In this document: positions 7,064 through 24,000 of the stretch, in pieces | How the letters are laid out: every line of letters begins with the position of its first letter | How positions within the stretch are numbered: the first letter of the stretch is position 1 | DNA from: Peptococcaceae bacterium | GTDB taxonomy: Bacteria > Bacillota > Desulfotomaculia > Desulfotomaculales > JACDOK01 | Assembly (NCBI GenBank): GCA_017656185.1 | Contig: JACDOK010000005.1 | Coordinates: 49,201-73,200, forward strand | Direction of reading: 5' to 3' | DNA length: 24,000 nt | Translations under genes and position numbers: made by a program | The notes under the pieces: generated by a model | The model's input: only the letters and a program-made list of their open reading frames with translations | Told to the model about the DNA's origin: nothing | Databases searched by the model: none

Positions 7064-7088
7064 AAGGACATACTATAAGGAGAGGTTT

Positions 7089-7445
7089 ATGTCTTTATCA
7101 CCTCCCGATGCTATCGAAACATTCTTACAGCAAGTTAGGCGACTTATTGATATCGGCAGATTTGATTTAGTGATTCGTAAAGAAACACGGGCAGCAATGG
7201 TCGCTCTTGGGTTCTCGTCCAAATGGGAGGTAGCTGCAGTAGTAAAGAACCTTGCGGTAAGCGATTACGCCGAAGGGCCATGCCCTGACGATAATCCTAA
7301 TCATACCGGTGATATCTGGGTGTTTGGTCCTGAAATAGAAGGTAACCAGTACTATTTGAAGATTAAGGTGCGAGATCGACCTGAGGTAGTCTGCCTGTCT
7401 TTTCATATTCCCAAATGGCCACTTCGTTGCCCATATCGCAAGTAA
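7089..7445 (+). CDS. mqsR: MqsR-family type II toxin (mRNA interferase), 118 aa
   Basis: ATG after AAGGAGAGG. It is colinear by eye with E. coli MqsR: LQQVRRLIDIGRF vs LSQVKKLVNAGQV, HTGDIWVF vs HTIWQDVY, and GNQYYLKIKV...VVCLSFH vs GQVYLKITV...LIVSFK. Confidence 0.75.
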   Translation: MSLSPPDAIETFLQQVRRLIDIGRFDLVIRKETRAAMVALGFSSKWEVAAVVKNLAVSDYAEGPCPDDNPNHTGDIWVFGPEIEGNQYYLKIKVRDRPEVVCLSFHIPKWPLRCPYRK

Positions 7446-7488
7446 CTATTAGTTGCGGAAAAATAGCAGGAAAAGGAGGTGTTTGATA

Positions 7489-8460: not shown

Positions 8461-8546
8461 AAGCAATACGGGATAGTACTAAACTTCCATGACCGAATAC
8501 AAAGTGGTGGAACGCGGAACTCCGGCAGCAATATAGGCTCGCTGCT

Positions 8547-8574
8547 GGCGCAGTAAAAACGGCGCAGTAAAAAC
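8547..8574. repeat. Perfect tandem duplication of the 14-mer GGCGCAGTAAAAAC
   Basis: Read directly: copies at 8547-8560 and 8561-8574, in the intergenic region. Confidence 0.9.
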
Positions 8575-8595
8575 GTCAGCAGGATTTAGAATCAA

Positions 8596-8628
8596 GGCCG
8601 GTAGCTTTGCTAACCGGCCTTTTTATTT
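8596..8628 (+). terminator. Intrinsic terminator
   Basis: GGCCGGT (8596-8602) pairs with ACCGGCC (8613-8619), followed by TTTTTATTTT. Confidence 0.6.
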
Positions 8629-8693
8629 TCAAAGGAGGTATTTTTCGTGGAACGAATAATCTTAATTCAGACCAGGGACAGGAGGTCGTAAGC

Positions 8694-9287
8694 ATGCGTA
8701 GAGGGTACAAGTTGTTGATAGCGGTGGTGTTGAGTTTGCTCGTGGCGGTGCCGGCGGCTTTCGCGGGAATCAGCTACAACGTAGAGGTCTACGTGAACGG
8801 TGAAAAAGTAGACTTCCCGGACGCGAAGCCTTTCATCGACACCGCTAAGGCCCGGACGTACGTCCCCCTGCGCTTCGTCAGCGAGGCACTGGGCGGCAAG
8901 GTCGCCTGGGACGCCCAGGCCAAAACGGCCGTCGTGGAGCGCAACAACGTGCAGGTAAGGATGCGGATCGGCAGCAGGGTGGCCCTGCGGGACGGGCAGG
9001 ATGTGGCCCTGGACGCCCCGGCAATGATTAGCAAAGCACGGACGATGGTGCCCTTGCGGTTTGTGAGTGAGGCCCTGGGCGCGAAAGTCGTGTGGAACAG
9101 CGGCAAGGTGCTCATCACTGACGACGGCGCATCAGGCGGCGGAAATGAAGTAGTAGACGACCTTTACTTCGGGGATCACAACTATTATGACGGGAACGTA
9201 GAAGTGATCGACCTTAAACCCGGCGGCGGTGGGAAAGATACCACGCCAGCAGATAACAGCATTGAAGATATACCCTGGGCAGAGTAG
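8694..9287 (+). CDS. Secreted copper-amine-oxidase N-terminal-domain (stalk-like) protein, 197 aa
   Basis: ATG 8694 after AGGAGG. Signal peptide MRRGYKLLIAVVLSLLVAVPAAFA. Two copies of the hallmark motif: ARTYVPLRFVSEALGGKVAWD and ARTMVPLRFVSEALGAKVVWN. Confidence 0.7.
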   Translation: MRRGYKLLIAVVLSLLVAVPAAFAGISYNVEVYVNGEKVDFPDAKPFIDTAKARTYVPLRFVSEALGGKVAWDAQAKTAVVERNNVQVRMRIGSRVALRDGQDVALDAPAMISKARTMVPLRFVSEALGAKVVWNSGKVLITDDGASGGGNEVVDDLYFGDHNYYDGNVEVIDLKPGGGGKDTTPADNSIEDIPWAE

Positions 9288-9351
9288 TCGATACATGTAA
9301 CCGGGAATGTTGAACATATTAACGATCAAGTAAAGATTAAGAGTGAGTAAA

Positions 9352-9379
9352 AACCTCCGCATCGGAGGTTTTGTTTTTT
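9352..9379 (+). terminator. Intrinsic terminator
   Basis: AACCTCCG CAT CGGAGGTT followed by TTGTTTTTT. Confidence 0.7.
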
Positions 9380-9392
9380 GGGAGGGAAAACA

Positions 9393-12086: not shown

Positions 12087-12109
12087 TAGCAATGAAAGAA
12101 GGTTATTAC

Positions 12110-12142
12110 GAACATCCCGGGAAATCAATTCCCGGGATGTTC
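12110..12142 (+). terminator. Perfect 14-bp-stem hairpin after the large gene (terminator-like, weak U-tract)
   Basis: GAACATCCCGGGAA (12110-12123), a 5-nt loop, then TTCCCGGGATGTTC (12129-12142). The following sequence CCTTAAAAACC is not U-rich. Confidence 0.4.
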
Positions 12143-12190
12143 CTTAAAAACCATCAATGAGATATTGAACCGTTACCGAAAGGGAAGTCT

Positions 12191-12568
12191 ATGGTAAACA
12201 ACCAAAGAATTAAAAGAATAGGAACTTTAGATAGACGTGTGATAGAGCTACTAGGACTTTCTATGGCAGAAGGACTGCCTATTCTGATAGGAGATCAAAA
12301 TATTGCACATATGAAAAAGGCACATCCTGAAGACTATGCTCAATATGGTCATAAGATTGAAGAAATTTTATCCTCGCCAACTTATGTTGCAAAACATCCA
12401 CGAAAGAGTTCCATAGAATATGTTAAGGTCTACGAAGTAGAAAATGATTACGTCCTAGTAGCAGTTTGGGCTTCGGGGAGAGGGGTTTTATTTGCTAGAA
12501 CATTATTTGTAATGTCTAATAAAAAAATAAAAAAATATTTTAGCAAAAATGCTTTTAAGCGATATTGA
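12191..12568 (+). CDS. Small PBECR-like (Barnase/EndoU/ColicinE5-D/RelE-like nuclease) domain protein, 125 aa; family assignment tentative
   Basis: The pattern LPILIGDQNIAHMKKAHPEDY...IEEILSSPTYVAKHP...SIEYVKVY...YVLVAVWASGRGVLFARTLF matches, as I remember it, the small Firmicute/phage PBECR proteins (I.I....I.HI.KRHP.D....I..I...PDYV......SIEF.K....Y..VAV....G..F.RT.Y). The gene is markedly AT-rich relative to its neighbours. Confidence 0.4.
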   Translation: MVNNQRIKRIGTLDRRVIELLGLSMAEGLPILIGDQNIAHMKKAHPEDYAQYGHKIEEILSSPTYVAKHPRKSSIEYVKVYEVENDYVLVAVWASGRGVLFARTLFVMSNKKIKKYFSKNAFKRY

Positions 12569-12570
12569 GT

Positions 12571-12598
12571 TTGACACTATCAGTTATTCTGCTATAAT
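12571..12598 (+). promoter_or_regulatory. Strong sigma-70/SigA-type promoter (TTGACA - 16 nt - TGCTATAAT, extended -10)
   Basis: TTGACA at 12571-12576, TG at 12590-12591 and TATAAT at 12593-12598, starting 3 nt after the preceding stop codon. Confidence 0.6.
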
Positions 12599-12604
12599 AA
12601 TTAG

Positions 12605-12753
12605 TGAAATACGTATAATAACAGGAGAAACTTGAGGGCGGAACAGGCAGCCGCCGCCACGTACATACAAGTGTATGTACGGTAGGAGATGCAGATTGCC
12701 ACCTGCCAAGTTTCTCAACCGTTTCAAGGGCCGCGTTTTTCCGCGGCCTTTTT
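12605..12753 (+). ncRNA. Candidate structured leader/sRNA (unassigned class) ending in an intrinsic terminator
   Basis: Closing 10-bp helix GAGAAACTTG (12625-12634) / CAAGTTTCTC (12707-12716). Internal perfect hairpin GTACATAC-AAGT-GTATGTAC (12661-12680). GGCGG (12637-12641) / CCGCC (12651-12655) forms a hairpin whose loop GGCAG (12646-12650) can alternatively pair with CTGCC (12703-12707), giving pseudoknot potential. The terminator is GGCCGCG (12729-12735) / CGCGGCC (12742-12748) + TTTTT. No plausible ORF. Confidence 0.4.
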
Positions 12754-12778
12754 CATATTTTTAAGTCGTTTATGTTTT

Positions 12779-12807
12779 GCGCCTCGTTAGAAGGCGCTTT
12801 TTGTTTT
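12779..12807 (+). terminator. Second tandem intrinsic terminator
   Basis: GCGCCT (12779-12784) / AGGCGC (12792-12797) followed by TTTTTGTTTT. Confidence 0.55.
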
Positions 12808-12883
12808 GCAACAGCAGAGGTCTCCAGTGTTCTGGTTAGTTAGCCGGATAGGAGAATATGGGGGAATTGGGGGAAACGAGGGG

Positions 12884-13402
12884 GTGATAACGATTCGGGA
12901 TCAGCGCGGTTCCCTGACCTTAACCCTGGTGCCTATCTTTTTGATGATTGCCCTGATGGTATTCTTCATCGTCATCGGTACCGCCTTCGGAGCCAGGAAA
13001 GTTGCCTACTGCACTTACCAGTGGTTTGGGGAAGCGATGGACTTTGCCGCTATGGACGCCAATCAGGACGGGGATTTATCGCAAGTAGCGCTGCGTACTC
13101 CTACGGCCCAAACGGCCTTTACCAGGGTCTTTGCCGAGATGACCGGCACCGAATACATAAACGGTAGCTTTATACCACAAGGGCAAAGTCCGTATCCTGG
13201 GCCGATCACCCTGGACAGCTTCGAACCGGTGCAGCCCGGCGACCCCATTCCGTACGGCACAGCCAGGCAGCCGGGTTATGTAGCGGTTATTACCGTGCCG
13301 GTATTTGGTGACGAATATCCATTTATCGGTGAGCAATATGTCACCGTGCCCATGCGGTATTTTGCCGTAGCCCGGTCTGCGGAAGGCATAATCGATCATT
13401 GA
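12884..13402 (+). CDS. TadG/TadE-like pseudopilin (Flp pilus assembly, Tad_N-like N-terminus), 172 aa
   Basis: In-frame GTG 12884 preceded by ACGAGGGGG. The N-terminus (V)ITIRDQRGSLTLTLVPIFLMIALMVFFIVIG resembles the TadE/G-like signature (ERGsvaveFALvLPvLLll..g). Confidence 0.5.
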   Translation: MITIRDQRGSLTLTLVPIFLMIALMVFFIVIGTAFGARKVAYCTYQWFGEAMDFAAMDANQDGDLSQVALRTPTAQTAFTRVFAEMTGTEYINGSFIPQGQSPYPGPITLDSFEPVQPGDPIPYGTARQPGYVAVITVPVFGDEYPFIGEQYVTVPMRYFAVARSAEGIIDH

Positions 13403-13409
13403 GGAGGGA

Positions 13410-14741
13410 TTGAAAATCGGACTTACGGTAGAAGAAAACTGGAGTAGTCACCTCAAAAAACAGAGGGAGAAAATTACGGAAGAGATCGCGCGCCAGCTAT
13501 CTAGGGATCATCCCGAGATACTTCGCGGTGAACTGTCAGATACAGTAGAACATCTTATCCGCCAGGCGGTCGTTCAGCACCCGGACTTGGCACCGGATGA
13601 AGTGGAAGAGGTAGTGGCTGCAATCAAAGGCCAGGTTACCGGATACGGCCCGCTGCAAGAACTCTTCGCGGACCCGGATATTACGGAAATTATGATTAAC
13701 CCTACCAAGGACGGTCCAAGAGTTTTCTACAGCAAACACGGTGTCAAGTTTCCCGTCGAACGCCGTATTTTCAAAGACGACCGCGAGGTAACATTGTTTT
13801 GCCAGCGCATATGCGAAAATGCCGGGCGCCCCTTCAACGCCGACGCGCCGATCGTGGACGCGTGGCTCAAAGACGGCAGCCGTATCAACGTGATGGGGTT
13901 TAAGGTGTCTCCTCTCGGCACGACGGCTACGATCAGAAAGTCGCCTTTGCTGCGACCGCCTTTACCCCTATCGGCTTTGGTGGCATCGGGGACCTTCCCA
14001 CAGTTTGTAGCCGATTTTATGGTCGACGTGCTCGTCAAAGGACACGCTAATTTAGGTGTTTTCGGACGCACGGACAGCGGCAAAACGACAGTCCTCCGGA
14101 GCCTGGGCGATTATATTGATCCCGCCGACCGAACCGTAATAACGGAAACCAGCTTTGAACTCGCATTTCCCAACCTGCCGAACTGCATTAACCTGGTTGA
14201 GGTTGCCTACGGAAACGAAACAATCGTCGATATGAGCATGTTGTGCCGGGCGGTGAACCGCATCAACCCCGACCGTATGATGGTCGGTGAGATCCGCAGC
14301 AGGGAAGTAATTGCCGCCTCCCAGCTCGCGGCCTCCACGTCAGGTGGCTTCTGGACCACCGGCCACGCCGGGAGCGTTGATGATTTGCGGACCCGCCTTT
14401 GGGGCATGTTTCTGGACGGCGGCGTCGAGATCCCGCCGAACTTTTTAGACGAGATAATCCGGTCAATGTTTGATTTCTTGATCTTCCTTGATAAAGAGAG
14501 CAAGACCGATCGCCGCGTCTTAATGTCGCTGGTCGAAGTTACAAGCGAAGGATACCGTACCATTATCCGCTTTGACGAACGGGAATTCCTGGCCAGCCAA
14601 AAACAGACGTATCGATGGATATTTGAAAACCCGGTCACGGACGAGCGCCTGTCACGCCTGGCATTCCGGGGCGCAAAAGTCAAACAGGAATACCGGGAGG
14701 TAGGACACAGAAAACACTTTTACTTGGAGGGTAACGAGTAA
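13410..14741 (+). CDS. tadA: Tad pilus secretion ATPase TadA/CpaF (VirB11-like T2SS/T4SS E family), 443 aa
   Basis: GYGPLQELFADPDITEIMIN, Walker A GRTDSGKTT, Asp box, Walker B PDRMMVGEIR and His box TTGHAGS. Confidence 0.9.
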   Translation: MKIGLTVEENWSSHLKKQREKITEEIARQLSRDHPEILRGELSDTVEHLIRQAVVQHPDLAPDEVEEVVAAIKGQVTGYGPLQELFADPDITEIMINPTKDGPRVFYSKHGVKFPVERRIFKDDREVTLFCQRICENAGRPFNADAPIVDAWLKDGSRINVMGFKVSPLGTTATIRKSPLLRPPLPLSALVASGTFPQFVADFMVDVLVKGHANLGVFGRTDSGKTTVLRSLGDYIDPADRTVITETSFELAFPNLPNCINLVEVAYGNETIVDMSMLCRAVNRINPDRMMVGEIRSREVIAASQLAASTSGGFWTTGHAGSVDDLRTRLWGMFLDGGVEIPPNFLDEIIRSMFDFLIFLDKESKTDRRVLMSLVEVTSEGYRTIIRFDEREFLASQKQTYRWIFENPVTDERLSRLAFRGAKVKQEYREVGHRKHFYLEGNE

Positions 14742-15550
14742 TGATAACTCTCCTGCTCATACTCGGGCTGTTCGGCAGCCTTTTGTTTTTGTTTTATACC
14801 TTAACCACCGGGCGTTCTCCCATAGAACGCAACCTGAAAGCTGTCATCAAAAATTTTATGTTTTGCTCCGGAATCCCTTTAGTCGTTGCCCTGGTTTTCT
14901 TTTTGGTTGGGAATATTCTTTTCGCTACGCCGGTGGCAGGACTGGTGTGGGGGATCTTGGGATGGTTCGTTCCCCTATGGGTAATCGACGCTGCCAAGGG
15001 CCGCCGGCAGGCACGCCTTCGCGCGATCTCACGCGACTTCATTACCAGTGCAGCCGGGCTTTACAGCGCCAACCAGGTCACCAGCGAAGTAATCACTACC
15101 GCAGGGAAGCGTTTACCAGAACCCTTAGGATCCGAGTTTCGGGATATGGCACAAAAATACAGCCTTGACCCATATGTCTTACCCCAAAAACTTTTTGAAG
15201 ATCTGGCTGAAAAATACGGTCTTAATGAATTCAAGGCGGTAGGACAGATTTTGGATGCCGCCAACATTGCCGGGGGGCCGCGTGCCGCCGGACGTGGTTT
15301 AAAACGCCTCGGGCGTGCTTTGCGCCTTAGAGACCGCCTGGCGACCGAACGACAGAAAGCAATGTTGGAACCAGCCGTAGCCGCCGTCGTGGTCATATGC
15401 TTAATGATAATGGGATTGGTTCTTGATGTGACTGTTCTCAGACCATACTTTGCAGCTGCCGGGCGGTGGGTTTTAAGCGCCAGCTCTGTTTTAACGGTTG
15501 CGATGATATTCGCGGTGGTGAGATTGTTCCGGTTCAAAGATCTGTTTTAG
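14741..15550 (+). CDS. tadB: TadB-like type II secretion system F-domain membrane protein, 269 aa
   Basis: ATG overlaps the tadA stop (TAATG). N-terminal TM segments, a cytoplasmic T2SSF-like helical domain (LPEPLGSEFRDMAQKY...) and C-terminal TM segments. Confidence 0.7.
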   Translation: MITLLLILGLFGSLLFLFYTLTTGRSPIERNLKAVIKNFMFCSGIPLVVALVFFLVGNILFATPVAGLVWGILGWFVPLWVIDAAKGRRQARLRAISRDFITSAAGLYSANQVTSEVITTAGKRLPEPLGSEFRDMAQKYSLDPYVLPQKLFEDLAEKYGLNEFKAVGQILDAANIAGGPRAAGRGLKRLGRALRLRDRLATERQKAMLEPAVAAVVVICLMIMGLVLDVTVLRPYFAAAGRWVLSASSVLTVAMIFAVVRLFRFKDLF

Positions 15551-15562
15551 GGAGGAGGAATA

Positions 15563-16399
15563 TTGCAGGCAATGGAACTTGTACCTGATATATGGGCCAT
15601 CGGGCTATTCCTGGCTCTTTTGTTTACGTTTATAAGCTTGACGGTACCAATGGGCCCGGACAAAACCAGCGCGATTAAGGTCACAGCCGATGCGGTCCAG
15701 CGTTACTTGATAAAGTATTACACCAAGGATCATAAACCCTATAATTTAGAGATCCTGGGCCGTTCGGTAGGCCAAGTACTCAGGGCTTCACTTTTGATTG
15801 GCGGCGGCCTGGGTGCAGTCACTTTCTTGGGTGCCGCCAAGTTTGTAGGAGCTTGGACCCTGCCTGCAGCTCTGGTTGCGTTCTTTTCGGGAGCCGCGCT
15901 GGTTGAACTTACCCTCGTAAACGAGTTTCGTGCTTGGCAGCAGAAAATGCTTGACGGCCTACCTGCTTTAGTTAATTTTGTCCCGGCCTTTTTGGATATC
16001 GGCAGCATTACTGCCCGTGAAGCGTTGGAAAAAACCGTGCCTTTCCTGCCGGAACCCCTTCGATCGGAAATGGTAGAAACAGTAGGTCATATTTCCCGCA
16101 CCGCTGATGCCGAGAAGGCCTTTGATGAACTCGCCCAAAAGGTACGGCACCCGATAATGGACGCCATATGTTCCCGCCTGGCGGCGCGCTGGGATACCAA
16201 GGTCACCTCCGACATCTTCGACGACTTGAGTGATCAGATGGATGATTTAAAAGAAATCACCGCTACGAAAGCTACGACAGCGAAAACTGCCTATTTTGCC
16301 CTGGTATGCGTGGCTGGCTTAATTGGTGCGGGGCTGGTTTTTGCCTATCCGGGAATAAGGTTTCTGGCAGACCAATTCGGAAGGGGGTTTGGAATGTAA
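15563..16399 (+). CDS. tadC: TadC-like type II secretion system F-domain membrane protein, 278 aa
   Basis: TTG after GGGAGGAGG. Same TM - T2SSF (LPEPLRSEMVETVGHISRTADAEKAFDELA) - TM layout, and paralogous position after tadB. Confidence 0.7.
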   Translation: MQAMELVPDIWAIGLFLALLFTFISLTVPMGPDKTSAIKVTADAVQRYLIKYYTKDHKPYNLEILGRSVGQVLRASLLIGGGLGAVTFLGAAKFVGAWTLPAALVAFFSGAALVELTLVNEFRAWQQKMLDGLPALVNFVPAFLDIGSITAREALEKTVPFLPEPLRSEMVETVGHISRTADAEKAFDELAQKVRHPIMDAICSRLAARWDTKVTSDIFDDLSDQMDDLKEITATKATTAKTAYFALVCVAGLIGAGLVFAYPGIRFLADQFGRGFGM

Positions 16400-16430
16400 G
16401 GGGACAAAAAGAATGTAAAGGGGGCAAAAA
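16392..16430. repeat. Imperfect tandem duplication (19 + 20 nt) spanning the tadC stop codon
   Basis: GAATGTAAGGGGACAAAAA (16392-16410) and GAATGTAAAGGGGGCAAAAA (16411-16430). The second copy carries an ATG-TAA start-stop pair plus the SD of the next small ORF. Confidence 0.7.
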
Positions 16431-16431
16431 T

Positions 16432-16545
16432 ATGGGGCGAGTGTTGTTATTTTTACTCTGCGCCGGGATGGGTGTACTCCTTATCCTGGCGTTTTTTTGG
16501 TGGCTGTTTACCGTCGGATCGTGGTGTTTTACTATCGCTTGCTAA
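16432..16545 (+). CDS. Possible 37-aa hydrophobic membrane peptide
   Basis: ATG 16432 preceded by AAAGGGGG. The sequence MGRVLLFLLCAGMGVLLILAFFWWLFTVGSWCFTIAC is essentially one or two TM helices. Too short to be supported by composition alone. Confidence 0.3.
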   Translation: MGRVLLFLLCAGMGVLLILAFFWWLFTVGSWCFTIAC

Positions 16546-16569
16546 TTTAAATCAAGGAGGAAAGAAAAT

Positions 16570-16755
16570 ATGCCGACTATTTTACGGAAGCTTATGAAAG
16601 ATCAGAGAGGAAGCCTTCCTCAAATGACGTGGACCATCGGAGCTGCAGTCGTTACCGCACTTGCCCTTATCGGGGCTATGGTGTATTTCCCGGATATCGT
16701 CGAGAGCTTTTTCCGGGCGGCCACAGACTGGATCAGAGCGCAATTTGGTTTCTAG
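16570..16755 (+). CDS. flp: Flp-family-like pilin (61 aa), divergent
   Basis: Strong SD AAGGAGG. The size, the charged leader MPTILRKLMKDQRG, and the following hydrophobic helix SLPQMTWTIGAAVVTALALIGAMVYF parallel Flp prepilins (M..L..F..DE.G/ATAIEYGLIAALIAV). Position within the tad operon is consistent. Confidence 0.55.
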   Translation: MPTILRKLMKDQRGSLPQMTWTIGAAVVTALALIGAMVYFPDIVESFFRAATDWIRAQFGF

Positions 16756-16767
16756 GGAGCGATTTAA

Positions 16768-17181
16768 GTGCTTCACAAAGTGATTGCAACTTTCGGCGCC
16801 CTGTTCATTATCCTTGGTGTTACGCTATCTGGAGCGCTATTAGTGGGTATGATAGGGCAGTGGTACGTCGTTACCAACCAAGCACAGTTTTTGGCCGAAA
16901 GCCAGGGTAAATACGGAGGCTACACGACCGAGGCCGAAGCTGCTATGCAGCAGTTCTACCACGATTATAATCTTGACCCTTCAGAAGTCGACGTCTATGT
17001 ATCTGCGCCGGGAGGGCCCGTTCCCTGGGGTACGGTAGTGACAGCACGCATTACCGTACCCTTTAAGTTTCAAGTCGGGTCGTTTATGACCCCGTTTGAA
17101 GTTCTTTTAACGGGATACGGTCGATCGGTAAGCACCTACCTGCCCGGCAGCTACGACGTTACTTATACGTCACCTTCATAA
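16768..17181 (+). CDS. TadE-like / DUF4320-like minor pilin candidate, 137 aa
   Basis: GTG after GGGAG. A single N-terminal hydrophobic helix (VIATFGALFIILGVTLSGALLVGMIG) is followed by a beta-rich domain (VVTARITVPFKFQVG), immediately after the pilin gene. Family assignment is tentative. Confidence 0.35.
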   Translation: MLHKVIATFGALFIILGVTLSGALLVGMIGQWYVVTNQAQFLAESQGKYGGYTTEAEAAMQQFYHDYNLDPSEVDVYVSAPGGPVPWGTVVTARITVPFKFQVGSFMTPFEVLLTGYGRSVSTYLPGSYDVTYTSPS

Positions 17182-17194
17182 GAGGGAAGGTAGA

Positions 17195-17806
17195 ATGGGT
17201 ACTAAAGGCCGGGATTTGCTCTTGTGGCTTTTTACTTTAACGTCTCTGGTCGTGTTAGCCCTAAGCAGATATCCAAGCACCCTGACTTGGGCGAAAGGTC
17301 TATTATGGGTTGCCATCCTCTCCGCTGGGATGATTCTTTGGTTTATATGTTATACCTTACCCAAAGCCCATCGCGATTCACGAAAGCAGGGTTTCGGGAC
17401 TGTGGTGCTGCTGCCGGTGAACCGCTGGTGGGCTTTACTTTTGATATACCTGAGTGGAGAAAGGATTTGCGGTACTCCTCGCCGAGCTTATGAAATCCAT
17501 ATCCTTTTCTCAAAGGAACTTTCAAAGCTTTCCATATGGGAGTTTTTAAAGCGCTTGGAGGATGACCTGATACTGGCAAAAGATTCTTTGCCCGGGTGTT
17601 TGTTTCTCTGGGAAACACCTGCTCCGGTTCCTTCAACTATACGGCAGTTGATCCGGGATCTTGCAGTCCAGGGAAACGCCTTCTGGCAAACCGGTCGTTG
17701 GCCGATCCCCGAACTCCCTTTCTTACCGTCACTCTTAAAGAAGAAAAAAAGACACGTACACCGGGGAGCACTACTGCTCTCCGCAGAAGGAGGCGACAAC
17801 CCTTGA
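17195..17806 (+). CDS. Hypothetical membrane protein, 203 aa
   Basis: ATG after GGGAAGG. Three predicted TM helices in the N-terminal half. No recognisable domain. Confidence 0.45.
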   Translation: MGTKGRDLLLWLFTLTSLVVLALSRYPSTLTWAKGLLWVAILSAGMILWFICYTLPKAHRDSRKQGFGTVVLLPVNRWWALLLIYLSGERICGTPRRAYEIHILFSKELSKLSIWEFLKRLEDDLILAKDSLPGCLFLWETPAPVPSTIRQLIRDLAVQGNAFWQTGRWPIPELPFLPSLLKKKKRHVHRGALLLSAEGGDNP

Positions 17807-18471
17807 GTAAAAAAGCTGCAATCATAGTGTCCGTTGTTTTGGCCCTGGTCTTTACTGTGTTGGTTACGGCTAATGCCAACCGGCGTTTTGCAGAGGCAAC
17901 CCGTACTGTGGAAGTGGTTCAAACTACACAGTATATTCCTGCGGGAGCAATGGTCGACCCTGACGATATAAAACTTGTCAAAGTGCCGGACGAAATTGCC
18001 GCCGGCTTGATCCAAGATCCGGATAAAGTAGTGGGCAAGATAACCCGGGTCGGCTTAGTAAAAGGACAGTATATTTGGGAAGACACAGTAGGGCCGGGTC
18101 TGCCTTGCCGTCCTGGTTACATTGAAGTCCACGTACCGACGGATCTTTCCAGTTCTGCTTGCGTGATCGCCGGCGACAGGGTTAACGTTTACCCGATTAA
18201 CAAATCCGCCGTGTACAGCGAGACTCCACCATCCACCAAGCCACTGGCCGAAGGACTGCGTGTCTTACACAGCTATGATCAATCCGGACAGGAGATTGAT
18301 CCCGTCAAACGCAGCGTATTAAAGGAGGTAGCCACATCCGGGAAAAACGTGGCTGTGTCGGTAGCGCTAGAAGTGCCAAAGGATATGGCAGACCAGATTG
18401 TAAAGTTTGCGTCCCACAAGGCAATATATCTGACCAAGTGCCCGCCGGATAGAAGCTGGGGGGAAGAATAA
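17803..18471 (+). CDS. cpaB: CpaB/RcpC-like Flp pilus assembly protein (SAF domain), 222 aa
   Basis: TTG 17803 lies 9 nt after GAAGGAGG and overlaps the preceding stop (TTGA). An N-terminal TM (AAIIVSVVLALVFTVLV) is followed by an SAF-like VEVVQTTQYIPAGAMVDPDDIKLVKVPDEIAAGLIQDPDKVVGKITRVGLVKGQYI. The tracked 17596 start overlaps the previous gene by 210 nt. Confidence 0.7.
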   Translation: MSKKAAIIVSVVLALVFTVLVTANANRRFAEATRTVEVVQTTQYIPAGAMVDPDDIKLVKVPDEIAAGLIQDPDKVVGKITRVGLVKGQYIWEDTVGPGLPCRPGYIEVHVPTDLSSSACVIAGDRVNVYPINKSAVYSETPPSTKPLAEGLRVLHSYDQSGQEIDPVKRSVLKEVATSGKNVAVSVALEVPKDMADQIVKFASHKAIYLTKCPPDRSWGEE

Positions 18472-18473
18472 TA

Positions 18474-19091
18474 ATGCGCAAATTGACCCTTGCGCCGTGG
18501 AAGTCTGTTCCCCCCGCAGTGCTCTTCGCGGGCGGAAAAATCGCGGAGCTGGATATTACCTGGCCGGATTTTTCCGAACCCGGCTACCAGGACCACTTAA
18601 CCGGGCTCCCGAACCGCCGGGCTTTCGACGAGGCCCTGCAGCAGGCCGTGGAACAGGCCGATCTCCAGGGGGCGGCGTTCGGTTTAATTATCCTGGACCT
18701 GGATCATTTCAAACAGATCAACGATACCCATGGCCACCAGGCGGGGGACGCCATACTGCAGTTTTTCGCCACAATGATGGCGTCGGCCACCCGCGACACC
18801 GACCTGGCAGCCAGGTACGGGGGCGAGGAATTCGTAGTGCTGTCACCCGCCTACCAAGAAATTTTCAACATTGGTGAGAGGATACGCCTGGCAGTCAGTC
18901 AGGCGCCTTTTCATTTATCGCCCGATATCCACGTGACCGCTACCTGTTCTTTCGGCTGCGCGGTGTATCCGCAGGATGCACCGGACAAGGATCGGTTAAT
19001 AAAAGCGGCTGATAAGGCCCTGTATACGGCCAAGGAAGCCGGGCGCAACCAGGGACGGCGGGCCGGAGGAGAGGGGGGTGAAAATAGTTGA
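18474..19091 (+). CDS. Stand-alone GGDEF-domain diguanylate cyclase (205 aa) with intact active site and I-site
   Basis: LTGLPNRRAF, DLDHFKQINDTHGHQAGD, I-site RDTD (18792-18803), GGEEF (18819-18833) and KAADKALYTAKEAGRN. Only ~40 residues precede the domain, so there is no sensor domain. Confidence 0.9.
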   Translation: MRKLTLAPWKSVPPAVLFAGGKIAELDITWPDFSEPGYQDHLTGLPNRRAFDEALQQAVEQADLQGAAFGLIILDLDHFKQINDTHGHQAGDAILQFFATMMASATRDTDLAARYGGEEFVVLSPAYQEIFNIGERIRLAVSQAPFHLSPDIHVTATCSFGCAVYPQDAPDKDRLIKAADKALYTAKEAGRNQGRRAGGEGGENS

Positions 19092-20569
19092 TCTGTGTTA
19101 TCGCCGCGGAAGCTGATGTGGCGCAAGTAATAAAGAAAAACCTTGGAGAGATGTACCCGGATTGGACGTTTGAGGTCTGTACGGATGCAGCTGAACTAGA
19201 CAAGTGGAGCCGCAAAAGGCCCGACGTACTGGTGTTGAGCCGTTTTCTTCCCGGTGAAGACGCGTGGTCATTATTGCCAGATATTCCCGTAATGTTTGCG
19301 GCTACCCATGTCGTTTTACTGGTCGGGGAAGATTCGGAACAAACGCGGTCGTACATCAGGAAAGCAGCACAATATGGGCTCGAAAACTACGTTTCCGGCA
19401 CACTACCCGGCGATCGGCCTTATACCTTGCCCATAGCATTGCAGTACGGGCGGGCCGAGGTTATGGGCGGGAAGAGCCGGCGGAATAAGGTGCGTGCCCG
19501 TCAGGATTCAATACCTGACCGAAAATCTCAAAATCAAAATATAGAATGCGATGACCGGTTACAGAAGCAATGTTTAGACAAACTTTCATACCAGTGTTGT
19601 TTATACAATCCGCCTCGGCCCGGGCAGAACGGTCAGGATGAAGCACAAACTATGACGACCCCTGCCTGGGGGTCTTTTTTACGTTCCGAAGACGATGTTC
19701 CCAGGCAAAAATGGAATGCCCAGCGCGGGATCCTGGTAGTCGTCACGTGCAACAAAGGCGGTGCCGGAAAGACCACTACCGTTGCAACGCTGGCTGTGGC
19801 GCTGGCAAATGCGGATATGGAAGTTATTGCCGTTGACACCGATTTTGAGGGCCCGGATCTGGAAACATTCTTTCAATTACAGGTGGAGCGTGGGCGTGGC
19901 ATAGAAGCCCTGGCAGGACGCACAAAAAGCCTGGAATTGCTGGTTGAACAATTGCTTCTGACCCCTGAGAAATACCCTAACCTGCGGATACTACCTGGCC
20001 CGGCCGACAGGACGATTTTGCCTGAAACCCTGTTTCGTCCTGGGGAGTTGGCAGACATCCTGGACATACTGGTCGGATGGGCACCGGTAGTAATAGTAGA
20101 TACGCCGCCTAATTTTTGGACGAAGCCCTGGTTGCCGGACGTGTTCAATATGGCTGACCTGGTTATAGCTGTAGTGGATCAGTCACAGTTCACTATGGAA
20201 GACATCCGCAGGTACGCTCCGAAGTTACTGCAAATGGGCGTGCGCCCCGAGAAGATAAGGCTGGTATTGAATAAGTTCTTGCCACGTCTCCACAATCCGC
20301 GCAAAGTGGAAGAAGCCTTCTGTAGCGGTTTTAAAAGCAGTGTGCCGCGCAAGGTTTTGCCCTGCGTTATTGCCACCATCCCTAATGACTGGGATGCCCA
20401 CGTTTTAAAGGGATATAAGGGTGAAGCGGTGGGGCTGGATGACGCACGCAGCCAGTGGCACCATCTTGCGGCGGAAGTTGCTGCCGAGGCCGGGCAGCGT
20501 TATGTGAAGCCGGAACAGAAGGCGAAAAAGGGCCTTTTGGGGTTGGGGTTTTTAAGGAGGAGGAAGTAG
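19088..20569 (+). CDS. tadZ: TadZ/CpaE-like protein 2: pseudo-receiver domain + ParA/MinD ATPase with intact deviant Walker A, 493 aa
   Basis: TTG overlaps the GGDEF stop (TTGA). REC-like features: ICVIAAEAD, then DVLVLSRFLPGED with Ser at the phospho-acceptor position. A low-complexity linker follows. ATPase features: ILVVVTCNKGGAGKTTTVATLAVALA, VIAVDTDFEGPD, VVIVDTPP. Confidence 0.75.
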   Translation: MICVIAAEADVAQVIKKNLGEMYPDWTFEVCTDAAELDKWSRKRPDVLVLSRFLPGEDAWSLLPDIPVMFAATHVVLLVGEDSEQTRSYIRKAAQYGLENYVSGTLPGDRPYTLPIALQYGRAEVMGGKSRRNKVRARQDSIPDRKSQNQNIECDDRLQKQCLDKLSYQCCLYNPPRPGQNGQDEAQTMTTPAWGSFLRSEDDVPRQKWNAQRGILVVVTCNKGGAGKTTTVATLAVALANADMEVIAVDTDFEGPDLETFFQLQVERGRGIEALAGRTKSLELLVEQLLLTPEKYPNLRILPGPADRTILPETLFRPGELADILDILVGWAPVVIVDTPPNFWTKPWLPDVFNMADLVIAVVDQSQFTMEDIRRYAPKLLQMGVRPEKIRLVLNKFLPRLHNPRKVEEAFCSGFKSSVPRKVLPCVIATIPNDWDAHVLKGYKGEAVGLDDARSQWHHLAAEVAAEAGQRYVKPEQKAKKGLLGLGFLRRRK

Positions 20570-20572
20570 TTT

Positions 20573-21628
20573 ATGGGCCTGAGTAAGGAAACGATAGAAC
20601 GCATAAAAGAAATGGCAACATTTCTTAGTGAGGATTACATAGCAGAAGCCTTCAATGTGCCCCCTGACGTCGTTAGAGCCGTTTTGAGGGATGAAATTGA
20701 ACCGGACGATGCAGATAATGAGAGTTCCCCGTTGAATGCCCAGGATCGTATCCAGGTGGTGGAACGGTCGAAATTCGTGCGGAACCGGACGGTAACGGTC
20801 ATCGCGCCCGGCGGCGGGAAAGGCAAGACGTCCCTGCTGGCATCCCTGGCACTAACCGCCGCCTTGTACGTACCCGAGCAGCGGCCTGTAGCCCTGATAG
20901 ACTGTGCGGAAGTTTCTAAGCTGGGAACCTGGCTGCAGGGCCTAGGCTACCTGGATATGGTTGCAGGGAATGATACATACCCCACAATCGCAGATTGGCC
21001 GGAAAAAGACGAACAATTTTACCTGGAAGAACTCACGATCCAACATCCCCAACTGGAAAATCTATACCTCGTGCCGGGTGCATATACGGTCGAACAGTGG
21101 AGAAACATCGGCATGGCAAGAATGCGTAATGCCATTGCAACTTTGCAGCGCAGTTGCGAAATGGTGTTCGTGGATCTACCGGCAGATGTCGCAGTGATCG
21201 GAAAACTCCTGCCGCTGCACGATTTGATAGTGGTAGTGATCACCGCAGATTATCCCGGAGTTGAAGGATTATTGCAGTTGGTGCCGTTGCTCAAACACTT
21301 GAGTGTACTTGAAAGGTGTCTTTTGGTTCTGAACAGGTTGGGTTGTGCGGGCGGTCTGTCACAAAAAGACTGCCGTCAGGTATTGCGCCAGGTGCTGGAC
21401 GAGGACGTGATATTCGGCGGGCTGGTACCGGAAGAGCCCGGCCTGCCGCAGCAATTTAAAAAGGGCAGGCCTCTTGTGCTGGCGGACCCGCAGTCACCGT
21501 ACTGTGCTGAAATACGGCACATTCTAAGCCAGTTATGCCCGGACTGGAAACTTAACGGACATAACCAACGCAATGAGAAAAACGGTGGCATTATCGGTAT
21601 TCTGAAAAAGCTGAGAAGAGGTGGTTAG
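20573..21628 (+). CDS. ParA/MinD-family ATPase 3 (CpaE-like) with short N-terminal helical/HTH-like segment, 351 aa
   Basis: ATG after GGAGGAGGAAG. Walker A-like VTVIAPGGGKGKTSLLASLALTAA, then VALIDCAE and MVFVDLPADV. Confidence 0.6.
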   Translation: MGLSKETIERIKEMATFLSEDYIAEAFNVPPDVVRAVLRDEIEPDDADNESSPLNAQDRIQVVERSKFVRNRTVTVIAPGGGKGKTSLLASLALTAALYVPEQRPVALIDCAEVSKLGTWLQGLGYLDMVAGNDTYPTIADWPEKDEQFYLEELTIQHPQLENLYLVPGAYTVEQWRNIGMARMRNAIATLQRSCEMVFVDLPADVAVIGKLLPLHDLIVVVITADYPGVEGLLQLVPLLKHLSVLERCLLVLNRLGCAGGLSQKDCRQVLRQVLDEDVIFGGLVPEEPGLPQQFKKGRPLVLADPQSPYCAEIRHILSQLCPDWKLNGHNQRNEKNGGIIGILKKLRRGG

Positions 21629-21740
21629 GTTGGCTTTGTGGTTCTGTAAATGTGGAACTGAGTTTGAAAGAAGCACAAAGGAATCTGGATAACTGAGCAG
21701 CTAAAAATGGCCTTTCCCCGGCCCCTGGAGGGAATTAACG

Positions 21741-22244
21741 GTGGATTGGAGTGCAACACTTTCAATGTTTTTCGGCTGTTTGCTACCATCGAGTATTGCA
21801 GCCTATACTGACTGGCGCCGATATGAGCTTCCGGATTATCTGACCCTGCCGATGCTGGGCTGGGGGCTCGCTTACGGCGTATATATGGGATTTGGCAAGG
21901 CAGCGATCACCGGCGCCGCGGCGGGGTTTATGCTCGGGTTAGTTTCAGCCCTGCTGGGGCAAATGGGAGGTGGGGATATCAAGTTCATGGCTGCGCTGGG
22001 GGCCTGGACAGGGCTTTACGGCCTGGCCGTTATCCTCATAGTCGCCAGTTGCCTGGGAGTTATATGGGGTGTCATCCGCATGGCCCGGGCTGGTACGTTA
22101 AAATACTGGATCAAAAAACCCTGGAGCCGGTTGCCGAATGACCCGGCAGCACCCGCACCCGTAAATGCGGTAGCCTTCGGTACCTGCCTGGCTGTTGGTC
22201 TCTGGTGCTACATATTATCAAGTATCGCGGGGGTGATCCGATAA
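21741..22244 (+). CDS. tadV: A24-family prepilin peptidase, TadV/CpaA type (no methyltransferase domain), 167 aa
   Basis: GTG after GGAGGG. A multi-TM protein with both catalytic Asp motifs: AAYTDWRRYELPD and GGGDIKFMAALGAWTG. Confidence 0.85.
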   Translation: MDWSATLSMFFGCLLPSSIAAYTDWRRYELPDYLTLPMLGWGLAYGVYMGFGKAAITGAAAGFMLGLVSALLGQMGGGDIKFMAALGAWTGLYGLAVILIVASCLGVIWGVIRMARAGTLKYWIKKPWSRLPNDPAAPAPVNAVAFGTCLAVGLWCYILSSIAGVIR

Positions 22245-23122
22245 TGCTATACCGGCCCCACCAGGTTGGGTTAAGCGTGGCGTTGATCAGCGGGTTAATT
22301 AGCTATGCGTTGTGGCGCGACTTTATTCCATGTGGAATATACGGTTGTCCGGCTGATGTTACACTATTGGGATTCTCTATAGCCGCCTGGGGTGCACTTT
22401 TTTACTTAACTGTTGCACTTCTCTTCTGGTGTGAAGCGTACCGGGTATTACCGGTGGTCTTGGGCACGGGTATTCTGGTGCATGCGGGGTTGTTTCTTAC
22501 AAACCCTCAATTTTGCTGGTTATGCATCATCCTTTTCTGTCTATCCCTGGGAATGCTGGGGCTTGTGCTGTCAGCCCAGCCGCCGGCCTTGGCTTTTATT
22601 GCCAATAAACCGGGCAATGTGGTTGTGGTCCTTCTTATCATTGCCGCCGCCGGTTTGGGGATAGGGGTGTCTTATGACATCCATGCTAAAACCGGGTGGA
22701 CACCCTTCAATGCCGTACCTGCTAAAAATGCAGTAGCCGAAGCCAGTAACCCCGCCGCTGGCCGGTTACCTCCGAGTTTGCTCGCTGTTACTACGCCCGA
22801 CGGTATCGCGAAAAAAGTGAACCTGGCCGTAAAGCCGGCCCTGGTGATCTCGCCCCACTGCAAACACTGCGGTGAAGTTCTCCAAACGGTCGCCGATCTA
22901 CCTCAAGACCGCCGGCCGTATATCATAGCCTTAAACGGCAGTGAAGCGGAAGTAAAAAATAAGCTCGCCGACGCCGGGTTATCCCCGGCCTTTTACTTTC
23001 TCGATGAAGATTTATCCCTGCAATGGGTGCCTTCCCTGGTATGGATGGAACAGGAGAAACGCTGTTTAGAAGATGGCATAGGCCCGGATGACCTTTTAAA
23101 AATCCTAAAGAAGGTGATGTAG
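22244..23122 (+). CDS. VKOR-like membrane oxidoreductase fused to a thioredoxin-like domain (DsbB/DsbA-analogous), 292 aa
   Basis: ATG overlaps the tadV stop (ATAATG). Loop Cys pair CGIYGC (22331-22348) is followed by LLGFSIAAWGALFY. Membrane-embedded CWLC is at 22514-22525, with about 5 TM helices. The C-terminal soluble domain carries SPHCKHCGEVL (CxxC at 22859-22870). Confidence 0.6.
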   Translation: MLYRPHQVGLSVALISGLISYALWRDFIPCGIYGCPADVTLLGFSIAAWGALFYLTVALLFWCEAYRVLPVVLGTGILVHAGLFLTNPQFCWLCIILFCLSLGMLGLVLSAQPPALAFIANKPGNVVVVLLIIAAAGLGIGVSYDIHAKTGWTPFNAVPAKNAVAEASNPAAGRLPPSLLAVTTPDGIAKKVNLAVKPALVISPHCKHCGEVLQTVADLPQDRRPYIIALNGSEAEVKNKLADAGLSPAFYFLDEDLSLQWVPSLVWMEQEKRCLEDGIGPDDLLKILKKVM

Positions 23123-23123
23123 A

Positions 23124-23966
23124 GTGTTCGGATTGGGAAAAGGCAAGGCGAAACCCCGGGTCCCCGTGGCCCTGCTGATATCTCTCGTGATCGGGCTGGC
23201 CGTAGCCGGGGGTACCGGCATGTACCTGAAAGACAGCCTGGCAAACACATCCGAGACTATAGAGGTAGCCGTACCGGCCAGGAACATCCCCCCGTACCAT
23301 ACCATTACGGCCAGCGATCTGACCTGGCGTACCATCGCGCCCCAACAGCGCGAACCCAACACAGTGGTGACGCCCGATGCCCTTGTGGGAAAAGTCGCCC
23401 GGGTCACGCTCTACAAATCAGAGCAGATCCGCCGCGAACGCCTGGCGGGCCCAAACCTGCTGGCGGGGTACGAGTTTGTCACCGTGAACATTGACCTGGC
23501 CCGATCCGGTGGTGCCAGCCCTGGTGACATCGTGGACGTATATGCTTTAACCATGACCGAAAGGTCGTCCTGGGTGTTGGGGAAGAAGAAACCTGTCGCC
23601 CGGAACGCCATCGTCCTGGATCTCTGGGACGGCCAAGGGAACCGGATTGACACAGCTACCAGCGGTGTAGGCTTAGTGGAAGCGACGACTAAAGCCCTTT
23701 CCGCCGGGGGCAACAAACCACCGGCGGTCGCCCGCCTGGCTGTACGGCCGCAGGATGTCAGCGGGGTGGTACCGGGAGCCGCTGCGGGATCCCAAACCAG
23801 TATCGTCCTGGTTGTCAAAAACAAGCAAAAACCTGTTGAAAATGAAAGGGGGGCTTTCAGCTCCAGTGAAGAAATGGAAGCAGCTGGGCGAAAAGATCAA
23901 GAACTGGGCAACCGAGGAGGAGAAGCCGGAGCCGGTAACGGAACAGAACAAGCCCAAAACCATTGA
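23124..23966 (+). CDS. Second CpaB/RcpC-like SAF-domain protein, 280 aa, with low-complexity C-terminal tail
   Basis: GTG after AAGGTG. N-terminal TM (VALLISLVIGLAVAGG), then an SAF-like IEVAVPARNIPPYHTITASDLTWRTI...ALVGKVARVTLYKSEQI. The tail is Gly/Glu/Ala-rich. Confidence 0.6.
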   Translation: MFGLGKGKAKPRVPVALLISLVIGLAVAGGTGMYLKDSLANTSETIEVAVPARNIPPYHTITASDLTWRTIAPQQREPNTVVTPDALVGKVARVTLYKSEQIRRERLAGPNLLAGYEFVTVNIDLARSGGASPGDIVDVYALTMTERSSWVLGKKKPVARNAIVLDLWDGQGNRIDTATSGVGLVEATTKALSAGGNKPPAVARLAVRPQDVSGVVPGAAAGSQTSIVLVVKNKQKPVENERGAFSSSEEMEAAGRKDQELGNRGGEAGAGNGTEQAQNH

Positions 23967-24000
23967 CGACTGCACCCGTTTCATTCGCAGAATGGCCACG
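23842..24000 (+). CDS. Possible 5' part of a further gene running off the window (alternative frame overlapping the cpaB-2 tail)
   Basis: The frame is open from ATG 23842 (or GTG 23866) to the window end: MKGGLSAPVKKWKQLGEKIKNWATEEEKPEPVTEQNKPKTIDDCTRFIRRMAT. The SD is weak and the stretch is too short to judge. Confidence 0.2.
   Translation, partial: MKGGLSAPVKKWKQLGEKIKNWATEEEKPEPVTEQNKPKTIDDCTRFIRRMAT

Follow-up and report, generated by a model that had tools for sequence, protein, structure and literature searches.

Gram-positive conjugation is usually described as proceeding without a pilus, surface adhesins making the contact between donor and recipient. The R64 thin pilus and the PAPI-1 pilus, by comparison, are type IV filament machines encoded in or beside a conjugative type IV secretion system (T4SS) cluster and used for mating contact; both are type IVb pili of Gram-negative hosts, with a PilQ secretin and a PilV adhesin shufflon. 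R64 is cited as reference 91 in passages of PMC4027160. Secretin-less tad operons were catalogued in Moorella, Desulfotomaculum, and Pelotomaculum by Imam et al. (2011; PMC3244431), in passages that describe Flp-like pilins lacking Tyr+6 and report tadZ, tadC, and rcpC, and the absence of a secretin and of TadD is expected in monoderm Tad systems (PMC6668835). Here we describe a Tad/Flp-type pilus gene cluster that lies beside integrase and ParB genes on a 24-kb stretch of DNA from a Peptococcaceae bacterium (contig JACDOK010000005.1; hereafter, the window, meaning the whole stretch of 24,000 nt), and we compare it with related loci.

The window cluster is a genuine, intact, secretin-less Tad-type pilus locus of a kind already catalogued in Clostridia. 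What appears to be new is that it belongs to a conserved family with its own core genes, and that this family is embedded in monoderm T4SS clusters. We propose that the region is a pilus module of conjugative elements, probably serving mating contact under the control of cyclic diguanylate (c-di-GMP); the function is one that we infer, with a probability of roughly 55%. A mating role is suggested because the same cluster sits among DNA-transfer genes in many relatives. An earlier reading of the window from its letters alone (hereafter, the sequence-only reading) had left it undecided whether the pilus is cargo or serves the transfer of the element, and the relatives, in which the module is embedded in conjugation gene clusters, give a partial answer.

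The listing of open reading frames (ORFs) and a reading of their junctions bore out the earlier description of 15 tightly packed ORFs, all on the + strand, at 12884-23966. The distances between consecutive ORFs are, in order, 7, -1, 12, 32, 24, 12, 13, -4, 2, -4, 3, 112, -1, and 1 nt, negative values being overlaps. The only gap above 32 nt is indeed that of 112 nt at 21629-21740, and the junctions read as claimed (TAATG at 14739-14743, TTGA at 17803 and at 19088, ATAATG at 22241). Most of the starts inspected in this run are preceded by a purine-rich Shine-Dalgarno-like stretch. The 15 ORFs are as follows.

12884-13402, + strand: 172-aa prepilin-like minor pilin (g01), with leader MITIRDQRG followed by SL
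13410-14741, + strand: TadA/CpaF-type secretion ATPase (T2SSE 59.9 bits)
14741-15550, + strand: TadB-like platform protein (T2SSF 21 bits, below cut-off)
15563-16399, + strand: TadC-like platform protein, homologous to the TadB family
16432-16545, + strand: 37-aa single-pass hydrophobic peptide, with similar small ORFs in at least 7 related loci
16570-16755, + strand: 61-aa Flp-sized prepilin, with predicted cleavage between KDQRG and SLPQMTW
16768-17181, + strand: 137-aa N-terminally anchored core protein (g07), present in 23 of 32 genome loci
17195-17806, + strand: 203-aa membrane protein (g08), a core gene at a fixed position in 24 of 32 genome loci
17803-18471, + strand: CpaB/RcpC-like protein 1 (CpaB1), 222 aa, its TTG start overlapping the preceding stop (SAF 29.4 bits)
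18474-19091, + strand: stand-alone GGDEF diguanylate cyclase (predicted), 205 aa (GGDEF, PF00990, 163 bits)
19088-20569, + strand: TadZ-like protein with a receiver-like N-terminus and a ParA/MinD ATPase domain (CbiA, AAA_31, ParA, and MipZ matches)
20573-21628, + strand: second ParA/MinD-like protein (CbiA 20.4 bits, below cut-off)
21741-22244, + strand: TadV-type short prepilin peptidase, 167 aa (Peptidase_A24 69.4 bits)
22244-23122, + strand: putative membrane thiol-disulfide oxidoreductase, 292 aa, with a remote VKOR-like and a thioredoxin-like domain (family-level matches)
23124-23966, + strand: CpaB/RcpC-like protein 2 (CpaB2), 280 aa (SAF 35.4 bits)

The core assignments made in the sequence-only reading (TadA/CpaF, TadB, TadC, and TadV) were backed by Pfam scans of the window proteins and, for TadB and TadC, by hhalign and T2SSF matches at the level of protein families; profile matches likewise backed the GGDEF protein (at the 163 bits given above), the two CpaB proteins, and the ParA/MinD paralogs. 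The reported lack of an RcpA secretin and of TadD also stood, with zero Secretin or TadD Pfam matches among the scanned + strand genes.

We compared the window with 60 related loci, 32 from a genome scan and 28 from a metagenome scan (labels beginning with L denote individual loci). All but three of the genome loci were assigned to Clostridia, with Moorella, Ammonifex, Desulfofundulus, Desulforudis, Pelotomaculum, and Desulfotruncus among the hosts. The cluster family occurs mainly in Clostridia that are anaerobic and often thermophilic, and in two assemblies the cluster is present twice. The conserved gene order starts with a receiver/ParA-like gene, a wall-domain protein (Cu_amine_oxidN1 or SLH), a large secreted protein, the minor pilin, the ATPase, TadB, and TadC, continues with the small peptide, the pilin, the 137-aa protein, the 203-aa protein, CpaB1, the GGDEF protein (in some loci), and the TadZ-like protein, and ends with the ParA-like protein, the VKOR-like protein (in some loci), the peptidase, and CpaB2. 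The ATPase is present in all 32 genome loci, TadB in 30, TadC in 27, the 203-aa protein in 24, and the pilin in 23. In relatives, CpaB2 is then followed by a second CpaF-like ATPase with a TadB/TadC/pilin set of its own.

Because the conserved order in the relatives starts at the receiver/ParA-like gene, the window cluster begins at 5649, not at 12884 as the sequence-only reading had it, and it extends beyond 24000. The core that this reading had called complete is so with two qualifications: conserved partners lie upstream of 12884, and a further frame runs off the end of the window. The genes for the 203-aa protein, the two CpaB proteins, and the ParA paralogs, which had been taken for odd extras, belong to the core of a conserved family. 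Four further conserved or potentially conserved features thus belong with the 15 ORFs.

5649-6977, + strand: protein with receiver-like and ParA-like parts (TadZ-like paralog 1), the first conserved gene (weak Response_reg and CbiA matches)
8607-9287, + strand: secreted Cu_amine_oxidN1-domain protein, a wall-associated partner (Pfam, 120.8 bits)
9378-12086, + strand: secreted protein of 902 aa (Sec signal peptide, PQQ-like beta-propeller, CARDB-like region; Pfam PQQ_2 and CARDB)
23842-24000, + strand: open frame that overlaps the 3' end of CpaB2 and is still open at the last position of the window (frame analysis; it starts at or before 23842)

The first of these proteins has a degenerate Walker A motif (SGRYKNTT), and in many loci a homolog is encoded ahead of the ATPase gene, on its strand, between an SLT/M23 hydrolase and the pilus genes. 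The likely start of the Cu_amine_oxidN1 protein is M30, at 8694; such a protein stands beside the large secreted protein in 16 of the 32 genome loci, with an SLH-like substitute in the Moorella loci. In the 902-aa protein, the C-terminal part of about 325 aa (about 578-902) is conserved, and in 22 of the 32 loci its coding sequence immediately precedes the pilus genes; a tandem repeat coding for HRDCDT (11931-11990) lies in its Cys-rich C-terminus. At the position of the frame at 23842-24000, relatives have the gene for the second T2SSE ATPase, and the 53 residues visible in the window, a short fragment, have no detectable similarity to that ATPase. A tandem second Tad-like module follows CpaB2 in L004 (7313-13064), L027 (from 19133), L001 (from 20639), and L002 (from 20930). 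That of L004 comprises a CpaF-like ATPase, membrane proteins of about 300 and about 260 aa, a 64-aa putative pilin, and further genes, and glycosyltransferase, methyltransferase, and VanW genes lie downstream of it.

Clustering of the flanking genes revealed a recurrent trio on the same strand upstream of the pilus module, consisting of a VirB4-family ATPase, a polytopic VirB6-like protein, and a hydrolase with SLT and M23 domains. The VirB4 proteins match P-loop_TraG and AAA_10 and a CD1110-type model of NCBIfam (E 1.7e-60). Of the genome loci, 20 have 8 kb or more of sequence on the upstream side; in 11 of these clearly, and in one weakly, searches with hidden Markov models (HMMs) placed the trio immediately ahead of the receiver/ParA-like gene, and the metagenome loci L043 and L063 are two more cases. 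Genes for T4SS_pilin (VirB2-like) and PrgI proteins lie farther upstream. L017/L048 and L047 have a gene for a type IV coupling protein (T4CP; T4SS-DNA_transf, 174.5 bits) after the pilus module; in L022 a T4CP gene precedes the ATPase by 2 kb, and L031 has an FtsK-like protein. The pilus module of L017 and L047 thus sits between the VirB4-to-hydrolase block and the T4CP gene. The other neighbors in relatives are those of mobile elements (ParB, topoisomerase, FtsK, PolA, SF1 helicase, integrases, and Dam methylase). The association between pilus and T4SS is strong, though not universal. We found no paper that links Tad pili to conjugation in Gram-positive bacteria, in a literature coverage that was incomplete.

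The T4SS modules themselves vary in their small genes. Two or three small VirB2-like proteins (Pfam T4SS_pilin) are encoded in L039 (3882-5039) and L041 (1-501), the VirB6-like protein of modules of this type also scores for T4SS_pilin, and in L041 the PrgI-VirB4 block is interrupted by IS605/IS607-type genes.

The motor of the window cluster exceeds the Pfam cut-off for T2SSE (59.9 against 24.9 bits). Ranked against solved structures in the PDB, it is closest to Caulobacter CpaF (124 bits), followed by FlaI (97) and VirB11 (48), and its top match in NCBIfam is FlaI (129.5 bits). Its Walker A motif (GRTDSGKTT), the Glu of Walker B, and the His box do not vary across the family alignment. IMG/VR contained no relative of this ATPase, and its best plasmid or phage relatives are about 32-34% identical, so the element is not a known plasmid or phage. 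The TadB candidate matches T2SSF at E 3.4e-4 (21 bits; cut-off 25.2), and a Desulfofundulus homolog has an unmarked T2SSF match. TadC of the window reaches only E 0.094, T2SSF matches being found in 6 of 18 members of its family (best E 2.8e-5), and hhalign aligns the TadC family with the TadB family over 222 columns (94.9%, E 4.3e-8). The split TadB/TadC platform is thus supported at the family level, the window proteins taken singly being below threshold; profile searches of the PDB with TadB and TadC returned no solved homolog. The 167-aa peptidase (69.4 bits for Peptidase_A24, cut-off 26.5) has putative catalytic Asp residues in YTDW..LPD and GGGDIK of its translation, lacks the N-terminal PilD domain, and has weak matches to EppA and FlaK.

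Both CpaB-like proteins score above the cut-off for the SAF domain and below those of more specific models. CpaB1 reaches 22.3 bits for RcpC (cut-off 28.8) and 54 bits for TIGR03177 (cut-off 71), and CpaB2 reaches 17.2 bits for RcpC against the same 28.8; the CpaB2 gene is kept 3' of the peptidase gene in L001, L002, L004, L013, L027, and L030. In the TadZ-like protein, the ParA/MinD domain is above the Pfam cut-offs and has the Walker A motif KGGAGKTT, and the receiver match at the N-terminus is weak (residues 2-104, E 5.6e-4). Its matches in the PDB include Soj, MinD, and CapB, and the TadZ structure 3FKQ is not among the matches at E<=1e-3. The ParA-like gene that follows it, at 20573-21628, is kept 3' of the TadZ-like gene in relatives; the protein matches MinD_arch, BcsQ, and Ssd at E about 1e-10 and has an atypical Walker A motif, GGGKGKTS, in which the signature Lys is missing.

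Two proteins of the cluster, g01 and the 61-aa pilin, share a leader of the form [KR]D[EQ][RK]G, with a hydrophobic stretch behind it. The leader Gly of g01 is invariant across 19 aligned homologs, and the same leader, as RDESG, is found on a Pfam-verified TadE protein of the related metagenome locus L006. The g01 protein itself has no Pfam match, and its single-sequence AlphaFold2 model (predicted local distance difference test, pLDDT, 47) is too low for use. The mature 61-aa pilin would have 47 aa, of which 17% are aromatic (8 Phe/Trp/Tyr), and the leader Gly and hydrophobic core are found in 26 of the 26 listed homologs. Its aromatic C-terminal motif, W-I-R-x-x-F-G-F, is conserved. The pilin has no match to Pfam Flp_Fap, even at E<=10, and among the 26 homologs position +5 is never Glu (mostly Met or Leu, in some Ala, Val, or Thr) and position +6 is never Tyr. 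It is therefore Flp-sized and not a canonical Flp: of the earlier label "Flp-like", the size, the leader Gly, and the hydrophobic core stand, and the Flp_Fap match and Glu5/Tyr6 are missing. It fits the Gram-positive class that passages of Imam et al. (PMC3244431) call Flp-like. The idea of a conductive e-pilus would draw on the aromatic content of the mature pilin and on the many hosts that are syntrophs or metal or sulfate reducers; nothing else supports it.

The second of two proteins that the sequence-only reading had called pseudopilins, g07, does not share this leader. Aligned N-termini of its family begin MLxKVI, so that the term suits the 172-aa protein, with its prepilin leader, and not the 137-aa one. 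We also considered g01 and g07 as paralogous pseudopilins and rejected this, as hhalign gives only 9%, with no homology. Neither has a Pfam match to TadE, and hhalign matches g07 weakly (31%) to the globular region of a TadE protein. The 37-aa ORF is real, and at least 7 related loci have a similar small ORF in the corresponding place; small hydrophobic peptides with a shared FWW/W..W pattern lie between TadC and the pilin in L001, L002, L007, L020, L021, L027, and L036, and in L002 a 42-aa gene is called at this position. The 203-aa protein g08 has no match in Pfam, NCBIfam, or PHROG, and its single-sequence AlphaFold2 model has a pLDDT of 45.5.

The GGDEF protein carries, in its translation, GGEEF and an RxxD I-site (RDTDLAARYGGEEF), and is a member of the cyclase family with an intact active-site motif, hence a predicted enzyme. 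The sequence-only reading had described it as a non-canonical extra; in the neighborhood survey, GGDEF genes recur in 13 of the 32 genome loci, with the same position reused (between CpaB1 and a ParA gene in 5 mapped loci), and HD genes, also related to c-di-GMP, occur in 3. In L071 (Ammonifex thiophilus, 2414-14354), a gene with dCache, GGDEF, and EAL domains lies between the VirB4 and VirB6-like genes.

The 292-aa protein had been read as a fusion of VKOR and thioredoxin, which holds at the family level as a remote match; by itself, the window protein has no match in Pfam or NCBIfam. Its family numbers 59 representatives in 1.84 billion proteins, and the family alignments conserve a loop Cys pair, a membrane CxxC (CWLC), and a thioredoxin CxxC (CKHC). 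Pfam VKOR matches occur in 5 of 29 members (best E 1.5e-13), and the family profile reaches solved structures of VKOR (6wv9, E 2.9e-4; 3kp9/4nv6, E 4e-3), including the Synechococcus VKOR-thioredoxin fusion, and of thioredoxins (E 8.5e-7). We regard it as a predicted, remote relative of VKOR-thioredoxin proteins, whose possible substrates include the 902-aa secreted protein of the same cluster. Of the 29 family members, 8 contain a VanW domain, and in L004 the second pilus module has a VanW gene on its downstream side, a co-occurrence that hints at a link between the VKOR-like family and cell-wall functions. The gene is found in 4 of the 32 genome loci. It precedes the peptidase gene in L001, L002, L007, and L025 and follows it in the window, where the 112-nt gap marks its expected site, which suggests a local rearrangement.

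Two units inside the window cluster are insertions into the conserved order, an MqsR/MqsA-SocA pair (7089-8460), which lies between two conserved pilus-cluster genes, and a PBECR3/skipping-rope unit (12191-12797). Apart from one weak MqsA-like fragment, both are absent from every relative. To their left lies the possible left end of the element.

1842-2468: Xer-like tyrosine recombinase (Phage_integrase 118 bits)
3205-5680: ParB of 560 aa with a long C-terminal extension, then a DUF192 protein and a 148-aa ORF
7089-7445: MqsR-like toxin gene
7453-8460: MqsA/helix-turn-helix protein fused to a SocA/Panacea domain, 335 aa
12191-12568: PBECR3 nuclease gene
12627-12714: skipping-rope RNA (RF02924; 57.2 bits, gathering score 36.7)

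The skipping-rope RNA has a perfect sigma-70 promoter (TTGACA-16-TATAAT, 12571-12598) and intrinsic terminators at 12726-12751 and 12779-12797. Weinberg et al. (2017) reported that this RNA is associated with a nearby protein gene of unknown role, and here it may form an RNA-toxin module with the PBECR3 gene. Its candidacy as a conserved regulator of the pilus operon was dismissed, since it is absent from 7 related loci and has its own promoter and terminators.

The integrase, ParB, and DUF192 genes and the neighboring small ORFs are essentially window-specific, relatives having one ParB and one integrase homolog; L002 and L052 likewise have a ParB gene ahead of the cluster. Apart from the general models for ParB, Spo0J, and Noc, the best match of the window ParB is the ParB of PRTRC systems (134.6 bits, below cut-off), and the 148-aa ORF has no matches. 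The recombinase aligns in frame from 1653 with a 305-aa homolog in L031, has no ATG, GTG, or TTG before 1842, and is thus short by about 30 N-terminal residues. Its frame opens directly after a stop and a terminator-like hairpin (about 1575-1612), the GC content drops to 42-46% left of position 2000, and the region 1560-2468 may be the left junction of the element. There is no tRNA and no convincing direct repeat within the 24-kb window, and the right end of the element lies outside it. Phase variation of the FimB/E type by the short recombinase was also considered and set aside, as no inverted repeats flank any promoter region.

In the mechanism that we propose, the CpaF-like ATPase would power the TadB/TadC platform, and the short A24 peptidase would cleave the leader common to the 61-aa pilin and the 172-aa minor pilin. 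By analogy, the CpaB-like proteins may form a ring in the envelope, and the ParA/TadZ-like proteins may position the machine. The pilus would supply the donor-cell contact or aggregation step of mating, as the type IVb thin pili of R64 and PAPI-1 do; the GGDEF cyclase encoded in the operon, like the HD genes of relatives, would place it under c-di-GMP control, and the VKOR-thioredoxin enzyme would oxidize cysteines of exported components. The transfer genes of the window element would then either lie beyond the 24 kb or have been lost. A bolder version, in which a retractile Tad pilus is the built-in, c-di-GMP-controlled mating organ of a conjugative-element family in monoderm Clostridia, encoded between the VirB4/VirB6/hydrolase block and the T4CP gene, is put forward tentatively.

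We consider mating contact the most likely function, and the main rival is plain adhesion, in which an ordinary, c-di-GMP-switched adhesion or biofilm Tad pilus travels as mobile-element cargo with no role in DNA transfer (a "widespread colonization island"). Several observations weigh against our proposal, and a number of them favor this rival. As had been reported of VirB4 and the coupling protein, the window lacks transfer genes: HMMs of the relatives' VirB4, VirB6-like protein, and hydrolase found nothing in six-frame ORFs, nor did phmmer with the relatives' T4CP, and the slot that these T4SS genes occupy in relatives is filled by the integrase, ParB, DUF192, and 148-aa ORF. In Desulfofundulus australicus, the interval from -10 kb to about +10 kb around the first ATPase contains no T4SS, and in L004, a closely related Logan contig, the T4SS-free stretch reaches about +19 kb; housekeeping genes lie upstream of the pilus cluster in Neomoorella carbonis, and L039 has a T4SS module without a pilus module. 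No relaxase was identified in any sampled flank, and no relaxase family turned up in general Pfam scans of the window genes, a dedicated relaxase profile search not having been made. No promoter was recognized for the pilus operon, and two intrinsic terminators lie 90-160 nt upstream of its first gene.

Adhesion is also the usual function of Tad pili according to passages of PMC13170226, and the beta-propeller/CARDB secreted protein and the wall-domain protein look adhesin-like. In L071, cellulose-synthase-like genes (BcsB-like and GT2/MshEN, the latter c-di-GMP-binding) adjoin the locus just upstream of the T4SS_pilin/PrgI/VirB4 block, and these, together with the c-di-GMP genes (GGDEF in the operon, HD and GGDEF-EAL in relatives), fit adhesion or biofilm formation equally well. 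Cargo, however, is normally variable, yet this module follows the T4SS hydrolase directly and on the same strand in 11-12 of the 20 loci, across several families, and its position between the VirB4 block and the T4CP gene in L017 and L047 is that of a structural part of a transfer operon. We rate adhesion cargo as somewhat unlikely. That the module is a decaying remnant, no longer expressed, on a degenerate element would agree with the truncated integrase and its missing canonical start, the two foreign units within the cluster, the second of which puts its terminators just upstream of the first pilus gene, and the absence of T4SS genes from their usual place. Yet the 15 ORFs are all intact and adjoin closely or overlap, the catalytic motifs are kept (Walker boxes of the ATPase, GGGD of the peptidase, GGEEF, and the CxxC pairs), and the alignments of the window to its relatives contain no frameshifts, which makes decay improbable. 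We give still less credence to a competence pilus for DNA uptake like the Flp pilus of Micrococcus luteus. Parts of PMC4322843 and PMC8467076 provide a precedent for Tad/Flp-dependent transformation in a monoderm, and the neighbors ParB, topoisomerase, and helicase are related to DNA; the scanned window genes, however, include no ComEA-, ComEC-, or DprA-like genes, and the DNA-related neighbors are of the transfer and partition type (VirB4, T4CP, ParB) rather than the uptake type.

Should the bolder version hold, conjugation assisted by a type IV pilus would be described here for the first time in Firmicutes. The module is also a candidate means by which genes move between thermophilic acetogens, sulfate reducers, and syntrophs. 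The occurrence of a conserved T4SS-linked Tad module across Moorella, Ammonifex, Desulfofundulus, Pelotomaculum, and related anaerobes makes the pilus-free view of Gram-positive conjugation testable in a new way. Our comparison also yields a leader motif for the pilin and a set of core genes specific to the family, which are not recognized by current Pfam, NCBIfam, and Flp models, and it links c-di-GMP signaling and disulfide-bond formation to a monoderm pilus machine. The window itself adds a new member to the family; if its element has transfer genes, they lie outside the 24 kb.

Compared with described systems, the window cluster resembles the Tad/Flp (type IVc) pili of Caulobacter crescentus, Aggregatibacter, and Pseudomonas in its CpaF/TadA ATPase, split TadB/TadC platform, TadZ-like ParA/MinD protein, CpaB/RcpC-like SAF protein, short TadV, and pilin of about 60 aa. 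It differs from the diderm systems in the lack of a secretin, TadD, and RcpB, which is to be expected in a monoderm, and from Tad/Flp systems generally in a pilin without Glu5/Tyr6, three ParA-like and two CpaB-like genes, family-specific 37-aa, 137-aa, 203-aa, and large secreted proteins, and the GGDEF and VKOR-thioredoxin genes within the operon. It is of the same kind, and from the same taxa, as the secretin-less Gram-positive tad operons, to which the Bifidobacterium breve Tad and Eubacterium rectale TadZ also belong; the survey passages of PMC3244431 are silent on the conserved extra genes, the tandem second module, and the T4SS link found here.

With the pili of R64 and PAPI-1 the window family would share a role in mating, which is inferred here, and unlike them it is a Tad-clade system of monoderm hosts. 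Like the Flp pilus of Micrococcus luteus, as described in passages of PMC4322843, it is a monoderm Tad/Flp machine tied to the movement of DNA between cells; the Micrococcus luteus system is chromosomal and imports DNA, whereas the neighbors of the window family are export and conjugation genes. Finally, the leader without Glu5, the FlaI model as top NCBIfam match, and the weak EppA/FlaK peptidase matches recall archaeal Epd-like/FlaI-type pili, from which Tad systems are thought to derive (PMC6668835). In contrast to those pili, CpaF outranks FlaI among solved structures, and the split TadB/TadC platform and the CpaB genes are features of Tad.

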